From Escherichia coli (GTDB lineage Bacteria; Pseudomonadota; Gammaproteobacteria; Enterobacterales; Enterobacteriaceae): a DNA stretch of 64,000 bases. A program made the position numbers and the translations under genes. The stretch is taken from assembly GCF_009931435.1 (NCBI RefSeq), contig NZ_CP043414.1. The stretch is one strand, 5' to 3'. Under the pieces are notes generated by a model. It made no database searches, was not told where the DNA came from, and saw nothing but the letters and a program-made list of their open reading frames with translations. This document shows, in pieces, positions 18,407-46,679 of the stretch. The first letter of the stretch is position 1; every line of letters begins with the position of its first letter.

Positions 18407-18443
18407 TGCTAACGTCAGATTGTTGACAAAGTGCGCGTCGTTC

Positions 18444-18545
18444 ATGCCGGATGCGGCGTGAACGCCTTATCCGGCCTACAAAAATTTTGCCAATTCAATA
18501 TATTGCAGGATAGTGTAGGCCTGATAAGCGTAGCGCATCAGGCAG
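18444..18545. repeat. BIME: two inversely oriented REP palindromic units between fepA and entD
   Basis: gccggatgcggcgtgaacgccttatccggcctaca followed by taggcctgataagcgtagcgcatcaggc; REP consensus recognised by eye. Confidence 0.7.
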
Positions 18546-18580
18546 TTTTGCGTTTGTCATCAGTCTCTAATATGGTCGAC

Positions 18581-19201
18581 ATGAAAACTACGCATACCTC
18601 CCTCCCCTTTGCCGGACATACGCTGCATTTTGTTGAGTTCGATCCGGTGAGTTTTCGCGAGCAGGATTTACTCTGGCTGCCACACTACGCACAACTGCAA
18701 CACGCTGGACGTAAACGTAAAACAGAGCATTTAGCCGGACGGATCGCTGCTGTTTACGCCTTGCGGGAATATGGCTATAAATGTGTGCCCGCAATCGGCG
18801 AGCTACGCCAACCTGTGTGGCCTGCGGAGGTATACGGCAGTATTAGCCACTGCGGGACTACGGCATTAGCCGTGGTATCTCGTCAACCGATTGGCATTGA
18901 TATCGAAGAGATTTTCTCTGTACAAACCGCAAGAGAATTGACAGACAACATTATTACACCAGCAGAACACGAGCGACTCGCAGAATGCGGTTTAACCTTT
19001 TCTCTGGCGCTGACACTGGCATTTTCCGCCAAAGAGAGCGCATTTAAGGCAAGCAAGATACAGGCCGCTCAAGGTTTTCTGGATTATCAGATAATTAGCT
19101 GGAATAAACAGCAGATCATCATTCGACTAGAGGATGAGCAGTTTGCTGTGCACTGGCAGATAAAAGAAAAAATAGTCATAACGCTGTGCCAACACGATTA
19201 A
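18581..19201 (+). CDS. entD: Enterobactin synthase 4'-phosphopantetheinyl transferase EntD
   Basis: 206-aa product from the ATG at 18581 (MKTTHTSLPFAGHTLHFVEFDP...). Confidence 0.9.
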   Translation: MKTTHTSLPFAGHTLHFVEFDPVSFREQDLLWLPHYAQLQHAGRKRKTEHLAGRIAAVYALREYGYKCVPAIGELRQPVWPAEVYGSISHCGTTALAVVSRQPIGIDIEEIFSVQTARELTDNIITPAEHERLAECGLTFSLALTLAFSAKESAFKASKIQAAQGFLDYQIISWNKQQIIIRLEDEQFAVHWQIKEKIVITLCQHD

Positions 19202-19322
19202 TTGACAACATCTGGTACGATTCGCCCGCAGCCATCACTGACCACGGGCGAAAGTGTAAAGCAGGTGCCTTACCATCCTGACCTGACAACCGGATATGCG
19301 GGGATTGCTCCCCGCACAACGG

Positions 19323-19475
19323 CTACTTCTTCGGTTCGTAAGCGAGAACAGCCCTGAACTCAATATTACGTTCCTTTACGGTGAACTCACACAGCGAGTC
19401 GCCGACCAGAAGCGTAAATCCCAGCACTGTCAAACACAGCACTATGACTGCCACAAGGGCATATTTCGTCAGCAT
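19323..19475 (-). CDS. hokE: Hok family toxin, copy 1 (entD-proximal)
   Basis: [50 protein letters not shown] (50 aa); a 1-nt deletion upstream breaks the in-frame mok-like extension seen in copies 2 and 3. Confidence 0.8.
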
Positions 19476-19554
19476 GTTTATATTGCCTCCATGCGAAGAA
19501 GGGACTACCATCCAAATTGTCTGGTTTGGAGTGGCGGCCCCAGGGTTGATAGAA

Positions 19555-19618
19555 ATATCTCCTGGGGCTTCATCTTTCCAGACCTCAGAGTTAACCGGAA
19601 AGCTTCAGGCACCCGCCG
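19555..19618 (+). ncRNA. sokE: Putative Sok antisense RNA, copy 1 (position inferred from plasmid R1 hok/sok architecture)
   Basis: Antisense to the mok start and ribosome-binding region; boundaries are approximate and not verified. Confidence 0.25.
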
Positions 19619-19817
19619 TTATCTTACCCTTCCTTAGCAAAATGGCTGTTTATTTATACAGTAAATCCTGTTCCGGACTTTTCATTGGTATTATCGCCCA
19701 TGCCAGTTAAACGAAATCGCCCGCAGCCATTGCTGACCGCGGGCGAAAATGTAAAGCAGGAGCCTTACCATCCTGACCTGACAACCGGATATGCGGGGAT
19801 TACTCCCCGCACAACGG

Positions 19818-19970
19818 CTACTTCTTCGGTTCGTAAGCGAGAACAGCCCTGAACTCAATATTACGTTCCTTTACGGTAAACTCACACAGCGAGTCGCCGA
19901 CCAGAAGTGTAAATCCCAGCACCGTTAAACACAGCACTATGACTGCCACAAGGGCATATTTCGTCAGCAT
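19818..19970 (-). CDS. hokE: Hok family toxin, copy 2, with in-frame mok-like leader ORF extending to 20069
   Basis: Same 50-aa Hok sequence (R at residue 41); the 83-aa in-frame ORF starts [33 protein letters not shown]. Confidence 0.8.
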
Positions 19971-20050
19971 GTTTATATTGCCTCCATGCGAAGAAGGGAC
20001 TACCATCCGAGTTGTTGAGGTTCGGAGTGGCAGCCCCAGGGTTGATAGAA

Positions 20051-20114
20051 ATATCTCCTGGGGCTTCATCTTTCCAGACCTCAGAGTAAACCTGAAACAG
20101 GAAAGCTTCAGGCA
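20051..20114 (+). ncRNA. sokE: Putative Sok antisense RNA, copy 2 (inferred)
   Basis: Same reasoning as copy 1; approximate. Confidence 0.25.
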
Positions 20115-20320
20115 CCCGCCGTTATCTTACCCTTCCTTAGCGAAATAGCTGTTTATTTATACAGTGAGTCCTGTTTCGGACTTCTGTTGGCAAAACTGAT
20201 CATTGCCCTTAAAACGACATCGCCCGCAGCCATCACTGACCGCGGGCGAAAGTGTAAAACAGGTGCCTTACCACCCTGACCTGACAACCGGATATGCGGG
20301 AATTACTCCCCGCACAACGG

Positions 20321-20473
20321 CTACTTCTTCGGTTCGTAAGCGAGAACAGCCTTAAACTCAATATTACGTTCCTTCACCGTAAACTCACACAGCGAGTCTC
20401 CGACCAGAAGCGTAAATCCCAGCACCGTCAAACACAGCACTATGACTGCCACAAGGGCATATTTCGTCAGCAT
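20321..20473 (-). CDS. hokE: Hok family toxin, copy 3 (ybdK-proximal), with in-frame mok-like leader ORF extending to 20572
   Basis: [50 protein letters not shown]; this copy matches my recollection of K-12 HokE (K at residue 41). Confidence 0.85.
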
Positions 20474-20553
20474 GTTTATATTGCCTCCATGCGAAGAAGG
20501 GACTACCATCCAAATTGTTCGGGTTTGGAGTGGCAGCCCCAGGGTTGATAGAA

Positions 20554-20617
20554 ATATCTCCTGGGGCTTCATCTTTCCAGACCTCAGAGTAAACCTGAAA
20601 CCGGAAAGCTTCAGGCA
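20554..20617 (+). ncRNA. sokE: Putative Sok antisense RNA, copy 3 (inferred)
   Basis: Same reasoning as copy 1; approximate. Confidence 0.25.
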
Positions 20618-20911
20618 CCCGCAGTCATCTTACCCTTCCTTAGCAAAATAGCTGTTTATTTATACAGTTGGTCTTATTTCGGACTTCTCACTACGCATTA
20701 GATCAACCGAAACTAAGCCAGTTTTTCCTTCGCCCCTCAATCATCAAAATTCTCCGCCGCCAGCCAGCTCTGCCATAACCTGGCACATTGCAAAGTAGCC
20801 AAACTTCTTCAGTCACAATCAGTTCACCATCACCAAAAAAAAACATTCCAGAACTTCCGCATCTCGCCCAGTCGCTCCCACTTCTATACTCAAATGAAAA
20901 CGCCAACATAA

Positions 20912-46094: not shown

Positions 46095-46679
46095 TTACTC
46101 CCTGACAGGGTTCGTAGGCCACTCAATATCAGGTGCAGTTGATGTATCAACACGGTTCAGCAACACCCGATATTTTTTCCAGGCTTCCAGCAATGAGGTT
46201 TCTTCCTCCGTTGCGATTTCCAGATCTACAGCATCCTGAAGTGGCGCAATATGCTCACTGGCTACCTGCATCAGGCTGTTTTTTGTTTCTTCCGCCTCCC
46301 GAATCCGGAACAGTTTTTCTGCTTCTGCATCTTTCACCCAGGCTGTACCGTTCCACTTCTGAAACTCCCCTTCCGGCGATAACCAGGTAACATTTTCCGG
46401 TAACGGACCGAGTTCAGAAATAAATAACGCGTCCCCTGACGCTACGTCATAAACCGTTTTACCCCGATGATCTTCAACGAGATGCCACGATGACTCATCA
46501 CTGTTGAAAACAGCCACGAAGCCAGCTGGAATATCTGGCGGTGCAATGTCGGTACTGTTTGCTGGCAGACCTGTATGAGGCGGAATATATGCGTCACCTT
46601 CACCAATAAATTCATTAGTTCCGGCCAGCAGATTATAAATTGTTATGGTCCGTGGTTGTTCACTCATTCTGAATGCCAT
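46095..46679 (-). CDS. tfa: Tail fibre assembly protein Tfa
   Basis: 194-aa [56 protein letters not shown]...; start overlaps the stf stop. Confidence 0.9.
46119..46260. repeat. Direct repeat copy B of the tfa 3'-end segment (inside the intact tfa)
   Basis: Partner of 45059-45200. Confidence 0.7.

Follow-up and report, generated by a model that had tools for sequence, protein, structure and literature searches.

Introduction

The closest described relatives of the locus studied here are the hok/mok/sok (parB) system of plasmid R1 and the chromosomal hok loci of Escherichia coli K-12. In R1, the mok start codon occupies nt 116-118 and the hok start codon nt 174-176, and Mok has a length of 70 aa (PMC9841398). 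Translation of hok depends on translation of mok, at least as far as the hok Shine-Dalgarno (SD) sequence. The mutations that cost the system its toxicity included five premature stops in mok ahead of the hok start; stops in mok downstream of that start have no effect on Hok (PMC9841398). From the start positions, the 70-aa Mok and the harmless downstream stops it follows that mok and hok of R1 are read in different frames. With the locus described here, the R1 system shares a Hok/Gef toxin and a leader ORF with a GAGG SD, which a complementary box further upstream masks in R1 and is predicted to mask in our copies 2 and 3. The antisense RNA of R1, whose 5' tail and terminator hairpin cover the mok start, has a predicted counterpart here, and the two ends of the full-length mRNA are predicted to pair over a long range.

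In K-12, mok of the mokC/hokC (gef) locus is in frame with hokC (curated annotation), shares its stop codon and adds a 19-codon extension. This is the arrangement of copies 2 and 3 below, although hokC is a different Hok paralogue at a different locus from hokE. The K-12 hokE/sokE locus has the same gene order as the DNA analyzed here (ybdK ... hokE ... entD-fepA), but it holds a single hokE copy followed by IS186, whereas our locus has three copies and no IS element. Tandem hok 'islets', in which 2-6 homologues lie less than 2 kb apart, contain 10% of Hok genes and originate by local duplication (bioRxiv 10.1101/2025.08.07.668861). The same preprint states that post-segregational killing is not shown for chromosomal hok loci and that HokE overexpression is reported to be toxic. 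Its authors left Mok ORFs unanalyzed, calling their identification not trivial, and the spacing polymorphism of 98, 99 and 100 nt described below is absent from it. The three-copy array is one such islet.

Results

A three-copy hokE/sokE array

We analyzed a window of 64,000 nt from E. coli (assembly GCF_009931435.1, contig NZ_CP043414.1); all positions refer to this window. Three hokE/sokE units form head-to-tail direct repeats of about 500 nt, spaced 495 and 503 nt, and the alignment of the three units has a mean column identity of 94% (Table 1). The array is flanked by entD (18431-19201, + strand) on one side and by ybdK on the other, and comparison with the K-12 genome placed it at the hokE/sokE position. 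Homologous arrays of two or three copies are found in complete E. coli genomes, where RefSeq labels them hokE x2 or x3. Identity of the array to the collection of complete E. coli genomes searched was at most 98.1%; in the same collection the flanking fes-entF region reached identities of up to 99.1%.

A 50-aa protein is encoded by each unit, as determined by ORF analysis. Pfam HOK_GEF (PF01848) matched Hok of copies 1 and 2 over model positions 1-42 of 42 (E=3.9e-8). The NCBIfam Hok models gave E values of 1e-10 to 1e-13, yet these matches stayed under the curated cut-offs. The same 50-aa Hok sequence is present in homologous units of strain WL297 (L001), where it is annotated as hokE. Between the mok and hok start codons the leader of K-12 hokE is identical to that of copy 3, and K-12 HokE is one residue apart (V8A in K-12). 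Copy 1 differs from K-12 hokE by a short-loop allele and by a rare 7-nt deletion, both described below.

As mok start we took the ATG that follows GAGG and 9 nt, at positions 19573, 20069 and 20572 for copies 1, 2 and 3. Two things support this putative assignment: R1 has a similar arrangement (GAGG, 8 nt, ATG), and the 3' end of the annotated SokE is 4 nt upstream of the ATG. With these starts, copies 2 and 3 have a mok ORF with its own SD that reaches the hok initiation region; copy 1 has the SD and the ATG but its mok stops 14 nt short of the hok SD, and 29 nt ahead of the hok ATG (19475). The hok SD GGAGG was unchanged in all sampled units.

Table 1. Features of the hokE/sokE array, in window coordinates
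Feature	Position	Strand	Basis
hokE/sokE array, three tandem units (copy 1, 19206-19705; copy 2, 19701-20208; copy 3, 20204-20711)	19206-20711	-	
hok (HokE) coding sequence, copy 1, 50 aa, intact	19323-19475	-	ORF and Pfam match
hok Shine-Dalgarno GGAGG, 10 nt ahead of hok ATG	19486-19490	-	read from sequence
mok leader ORF, copy 1, 22 codons and TAG (19507-19505)	19505-19573	-	ORF; putative start by R1 analogy and SokE 3' end
mok Shine-Dalgarno GAGG, copy 1	19583-19586	-	read from sequence
mok, copy 2, 83 codons, in frame through hok	19818-20069	-	ORF
mok, copy 3, 83 codons, in frame through hok, K-12-type leader	20321-20572	-	ORF
Length-difference site, 8-nt loop CCAGACAA in copy 1, 9-nt loop CCCGAACAA in copy 3 and K-12	19517-19524	-	alignment
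Sok-target hairpin in hok mRNA leader, GCCA-C-UCCAAA / loop / UUUGGA-UGGU	19507-19535	-	folds and RF01794 consensus
Junction of 7-nt deletion (TTTCAGG) between GGTT microhomologies, copy 1	19593-19596	-	three-unit alignment
Predicted Sok RNA, copy 1, 59 nt; single-stranded 5' tail GUCUGGUUUG..., terminator hairpin, U-tail	19519-19577	+	mapped from K-12 sokE
Predicted Sok RNA, copy 2, 60 nt	20014-20073	+	fold
Predicted Sok RNA, copy 3, 60 nt, 5' tail identical to annotated K-12 SokE	20517-20576	+	mapping and fold
Putative Sok promoter; -35 TTGCCT (19483-19488), 17-nt spacer, -10 TACCAT (19506-19511)	19483-19511	+	SokE 5' end and invariant columns

The conserved hok mRNA leader was also recognized by the Rfam model RF01794 ('sok'), with 74.6, 79.4 and 84.4 bits for copies 1, 2 and 3 at a gathering threshold of 59. 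Copy 1 has the lowest score because of its two deletions. The matches, listed by Rfam as 'sok antitoxin (CssrC)', cover 19467-19614, 19962-20117 and 20465-20620 on the - strand, which is the sense strand of the hok mRNA, and range from the 5' UTR to just beyond the hok ATG. Since they lie on the hok mRNA strand and the annotated K-12 sokE lies on the opposite one, the family appears to model the hok leader and not the antisense RNA itself.

On the other strand, RefSeq (PGAP) places spurious-looking 'hypothetical protein' ORFs over each hok leader (19381-19710, 19939-20148 and 20442-20651, + strand). The pipeline flags this antisense ORF as 'frameshifted' or 'internal stop' wherever a leader indel is present, also in the homologous loci L001, L003-L013 and L021. 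These ORFs look like spurious calls on the Sok strand.

A one-nucleotide length difference in the leader of copy 1

In copy 1 the mok ATG precedes the hok ATG by 98 nt; copies 2 and 3, like K-12, have a spacing of 99 nt. In the three-unit alignment copy 1 reads CCACTCCAAACC-AGACAATTTGG, copy 3 (and K-12) reads CCACTCCAAACCCGAACAATTTGG and copy 2 reads CCACTCCGAACCTCAACAACTCGG. Copy 1 thus differs from copy 3 by one gap and one substitution, which is no simple homopolymer slip. The copy 1 form CCAAATTGTCTGGTTTGGAGTGG (19512-19534, + strand) occurs a single time in the window. An invariant ATGGTAG supplies the stop codon of the copy 1 mok; it overlaps the complement of the putative Sok -10 box (ATGGTA complements TACCAT).

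The first-pass annotation of this DNA had described copy 1 as one nucleotide shorter between the two starts and its upstream ATG as out of frame with hok. The alignment bears out both statements, the second in the form of a 22-aa ORF as opposed to the 83-aa in-frame ORF of copies 2 and 3. The account was right about the 1-nt indel and missed a second deletion of 7 nt in the same leader.

Frequency and spread of the leader alleles

A population comparison had been proposed together with these claims. Of 5426 complete E. coli genomes, 1120 contain a 36-mer with the short patch at its centre, 770 of them exactly and 350 with one mismatch at unchanged length; the one-mismatch matches that were sampled are O157 strains. 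Beside it stand the K-12 patch (2224 genomes) and the copy-2 patch (1246 genomes). A 73-mer across the site was identical in 61 independent complete E. coli genomes. The first-pass annotation had allowed for a sequencing error, and a sequencing or assembly error beside the short G/T run, for which the local sequence context alone speaks, can be set aside as having a negligible probability. The difference from copy 3 combines a gap with a substitution, and the recurrence of the 73-mer and the 36-mer in so many complete genomes, from many hosts and countries, means that the allele is no sequencing artefact.

Ten loci were taken at even steps among the 1120 short-patch genomes. Seven of them contained a true 98-nt unit; in two the short patch is accompanied by an upstream +1 insertion, which brings the spacing back to 99 nt, and the remaining locus is a decayed remnant. 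The short unit is proximal to entD in WL297 and SCU-105, proximal to ybdK in O157:H7 SS17, and represents both copies in 19KM1831. In 2016C-3878 the short patch together with this +1 insertion is the sole copy, and in the genomes L004 and L019 every copy is short. The designation 'copy-specific' given earlier therefore holds inside the window but fails elsewhere, where the allele is found as the only copy, as both copies or as the ybdK-proximal copy. We also considered the short allele as a derived deletion private to copy 1 and rejected this on the same distribution and on its presence in other Escherichia species. Aligned to the Rfam model, hairpin 3 of copies 2 and 3 has one inserted nucleotide relative to the consensus, which is absent from that of copy 1.

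A separate +1 insertion in the leader (GGA-C-GATAT) was found in 2734 complete E. coli genomes. Where the patch is normal, the insertion raises the spacing to 100 nt, and mok becomes an ORF of 62 codons overlapping hok in a different frame. In the species representatives the spacing is 99 nt for E. albertii, 99 and 99 nt for E. whittamii, one of them via an insertion plus a deletion, and 98 and 98 nt for an Escherichia sp., one via an independent deletion (CCCAAC). The mok-hok spacing is a three-state polymorphism (98, 99 and 100 nt) in several Escherichia species, and because all three spacings are natural, mok has no conserved frame with respect to hok.

The -1 patch and the upstream +1 insertion (GGA-C-GATAT) occur together in L003, L008 and L012 (E. 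coli) and in L017 (E. whittamii), giving an 83-codon in-frame mok with an altered middle. Such haplotypes could reflect compensation or recombination between two common indel alleles. Selection for an in-frame mok was not accepted as their explanation, because both indels are common and recombination between them gives the same result. The ybdK-proximal short-leader unit of O157:H7 SS17 (L013) encodes a Mok with P3L and a Hok with L18P, which puts a proline into the predicted membrane helix; L18P may be an inactivating change of this 98-nt unit.

The reading frame of mok and the R1 paradigm

Units of hokE in E. coli come in three architectures. The first, seen in copy 1, has a 22-codon upstream ORF that stops short of the hok SD; in the second, that of copies 2 and 3, Mok is fused in frame to Hok; in the third, that of 100-nt units, mok overlaps hok out of frame in the manner of R1. 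The R1 arrangement was checked on R1-type plasmid loci standing in for plasmid R1. Two plasmids with a Hok identical to that of R1, pMTY1886_IncFII and pB2C_151 (L022, L023), differ in the frame of mok. In the R1-type plasmid, with a Mok containing Q15-G16-E17-E18 as in PMC9841398, mok starts 58 nt upstream of hok, is out of frame and encodes 70 aa; in the other plasmid with the same Hok it starts 57 nt upstream, is in frame and encodes 71 aa.

The dependence of R1 hok on mok translation, stated in the first-pass annotation, agrees with the published work (PMC9841398). The in-frame mok that had been made part of the paradigm does not, as the R1-type mok is out of frame and hokE spacings of 98, 99 and 100 nt are all common. 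Judged from these sequences, an in-frame mok is no part of the R1 paradigm, and lability of the frame is general, extending to plasmid loci. Being out of frame is then no defect per se, since the R1-type mok itself, 58 nt upstream, is out of frame. The relevant consequence of the indel is the mok stop 14 nt ahead of the hok SD, rather than the loss of frame.

The wide circulation of the 98-, 99- and 100-nt alleles, together with the out-of-frame mok of R1, makes the mok frame useless for calling hok copies: it is no guide to whether a chromosomal copy is dead or alive. These natural alleles are, however, a ready series for the question of how far mok translation must go to activate hok. The locus is annotated and the allele an ordinary one; the value of these observations is one of annotation and interpretation, a detail of a well-studied system rather than a wide open question.

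The indel lies in the loop of the Sok-target hairpin

In the Rfam alignment the indel falls within the apical loop of hairpin 3, the third of the leader. Across nine natural alleles, pairing in this hairpin was kept in 96.7% of cells, compared with at most 49% when the 3' partners were slid, and two pairs show an A-U to G-C change on both sides. In a sample as small as nine alleles this is modest covariation support for the hairpin. The annotated K-12 SokE begins with GUUCGGGUUUGG..., the complement of the hairpin loop and its 5' arm, and the indel maps to Sok nt +2 to +5.

Sok ends were mapped from the K-12 sokE annotation (607733-607792) and are, like the Sok promoter, putative. The predicted Sok consists of a tail of about 10 nt followed by a hairpin and a U-tail, in a sequence homologous to the annotated K-12 sokE. 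A consensus scan for sigma-70 promoters detected neither that of hok nor that of Sok, and the promoter positions in Table 1 are therefore tentative. The Sok promoter escaped the scan because only 8 of 12 positions match. All three copies of the window have the same proposed promoter boxes and the same terminator hairpin. Minimum free energy folds of five of six units, including all three window copies, pair GGCGGGUGCCU near the 5' end with AAGGCACCUGC near the 3' end, in single-sequence predictions with assumed transcript ends. The predicted pairing would correspond to the tac-fbi-type long-range pairing of the full-length mRNA.

We calculated duplexes between each Sok and the three targets. 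Cognate duplexes are perfect, that of copy 1 having -126.7 kcal/mol, and duplexes of copy 1 with the other two copies have -109 to -116 kcal/mol. When only the first 20 nt of Sok were considered, non-cognate targets were 8-19 kcal/mol weaker than cognate ones. On the copy 1 target, the 5' tails of Sok from copies 2 and 3 gave -24.7 and -28.9 kcal/mol, against -43.7 kcal/mol for the cognate tail. In the region from the hok -10 box to the hok stop, no 10-nt block varies as much as the patch, which has a mean entropy of 0.55 compared with at most 0.42 for every other block.

This pattern raises the idea that the patch is kept by selection for specificity, with the 5' recognition tail of Sok diversifying so that each Sok of a tandem array prefers its own hok mRNA. 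The high variability of the patch, its at least seven variants and the 8-19 kcal/mol gained by cognate 5'-tail duplexes would fit. On the other hand, a little-constrained hairpin loop would give the same pattern, the 3' UTR is nearly as variable as the patch, even non-cognate duplexes remain very stable over the full length (-109 to -119 kcal/mol), and the sample is enriched for short alleles. We regard such selection as unlikely. Under it the change of the mok frame would be a side effect; it is compatible with our preferred reading of copy 1 given below. A further reading, which we hold to be rather unlikely, is that the three mok-hok architectures of hokE differ in toxin output and that the patch, as the 5' tail of Sok, makes the Sok/hok pairs of tandem copies partly orthogonal. 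If this were true, the 98-nt class would be a naturally uncoupled or reinitiation-dependent hok variant, and the array a set of differently tuned toxins.

A second deletion upstream of the copy 1 mok

The second deletion of copy 1 removes seven nucleotides upstream of mok (Table 1). In folds of copies 2 and 3, UUUC from this stretch pairs with GAGG, so that the deleted bases correspond to the anti-SD (ucb-like) arm of the mok-SD hairpin; the Rfam alignment of copy 1 lacks the apical part of hairpin 1. Sequestration of the mok SD by an upstream anti-SD box is thus predicted for copies 2 and 3 but not for copy 1, and the predicted unpaired probability of the mok SD changes from 0.02-0.07 in copies 2 and 3 to 0.63 in copy 1. 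The deletion may let ribosomes and Sok reach the full-length mRNA of copy 1 sooner than they normally would.

The same junction was present in one other E. coli genome (SCU-171) among the 5426, on a different hokE allele with a 100-nt unit, and a scan of metagenome contigs found no such junction. The combination of the 7-nt deletion with a short mok appears unique to the source genome. That the deletion is tolerated only on an uncoupled 98-nt unit was considered and discarded, because the affected unit of SCU-171 has a spacing of 100 nt and a mok that overlaps hok.

The indel had also been suggested to release copy 1 from Sok control. Taken broadly, this would mean that the indel, perhaps with the anti-SD deletion, frees the copy from Sok or structural control and makes it more active. 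The lost anti-SD (unpaired probability of the mok SD up to 0.63, from 0.03-0.07) and the poorer 5'-tail pairing of the copy 1 target with Sok of copies 2 and 3 are in its favour. Copy 1, however, encodes its own perfectly complementary Sok behind unchanged putative promoter boxes and with an unchanged terminator, the early mok stop works against Hok synthesis, and a deregulated toxin is unlikely to persist in about a fifth of genomes. Release is thus very improbable. Sok and its target come from opposite strands of one piece of DNA, and the proposed promoter boxes and the terminator are intact, so Sok control of copy 1 in cis should be unaffected.

Expected effect on Hok synthesis

The explanation that we favour, and hold to be fairly probable, is that copy 1 represents a common natural 'short-loop' allele of hokE/sokE with weaker mok-coupled translation of hok and with Sok repression kept. 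The length change affects the apical loop of the Sok-target hairpin, which corresponds to the first five nt of Sok, a position that tolerates changes of length and sequence in the RNA. As a by-product, mok has turned from the 83-codon hok fusion of copies 2, 3 and K-12 into a 22-codon upstream ORF. Its UAG comes early, 14 nt ahead of the hok SD and 29 nt ahead of the AUG, and would weaken mok-coupled translation of hok, with an outcome anywhere from attenuation to silence. Repression of copy 1 by Sok in cis would stay, and the copy would not be deregulated. Silencing, which the first-pass annotation had suggested as an alternative to release, is plausible by analogy with the premature-stop suppressors of R1.

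We infer the effect on Hok synthesis from this R1 analogy, by which attenuated translation of hok in copy 1 is somewhat likelier to be true than false. We prefer attenuation, at the same degree of confidence, over full neutrality, which we hold to be possible but doubtful. In the neutral case a 22-codon mok would suffice to activate hok, through unfolding of the RNA just ahead of the terminating ribosome or through reinitiation at the strong hok SD and the AUG 29 nt further on, and copy 1 would act no differently from the other two copies. In favour of neutrality, the short allele is frequent, has at least two origins and is present in other Escherichia species, and some genomes (L004, L019) hold short units only. 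In addition, none of the 14 hok ORFs behind short leaders is disrupted, and synonymous variants prevail in them: variant sites comprise 5 nonsynonymous and 10 synonymous in hok behind short leaders and 6 and 12 in the in-frame units. The intact ORFs and the matching ratio argue against long-standing decay, but gene conversion between tandem copies of an array might account for the conservation of hok and weakens this argument.

Thermodynamic modelling bears on the same question. The hok SD GGAGG, at its 10-nt spacing, is predicted to be about half accessible in all alleles; the unpaired probabilities are 0.35-0.67, and none is strongly sequestered. With or without the mok region held open, accessibility of the hok SD ranged from 0.35 to 0.79 with no consistent trend. 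Since the hok SD is not strongly sequestered in any allele, the modelling predicts no clear effect of the early mok stop, which also suits neutrality. A ribosome terminating 14 nt before GGAGG could open the region or reinitiate, with coupling retained. Against neutrality stand the R1 data, where premature mok stops before the hok start abolish toxicity and translation as far as the hok SD is mandatory (PMC9841398). That the short allele is kept with an intact hok across species, and as the sole state in L004 and L019, could fit a functional and a neutral silent allele equally.

Surroundings of hokE units

IS186/IS421 is located just 3' of hokE units in unrelated strains, namely L002 (K-12), L010 and L011, and in L011 after both copies. 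This suggests that the 3' end of the hok transcript is an insertion hot spot for IS elements. In L005, L007 and L014, the hokE array is followed by genes for an SDR-family oxidoreductase and an ABC transporter instead of entD-fepA; L014 additionally has remnants of hokE in heavy decay and a Hok whose C-terminus is replaced. Other Rfam matches in the window were the ES036 (CssrF) sRNA at 18481-18522 (+ strand), just upstream of or inside the entD start, and IS009 at 46138-46336 (- strand).
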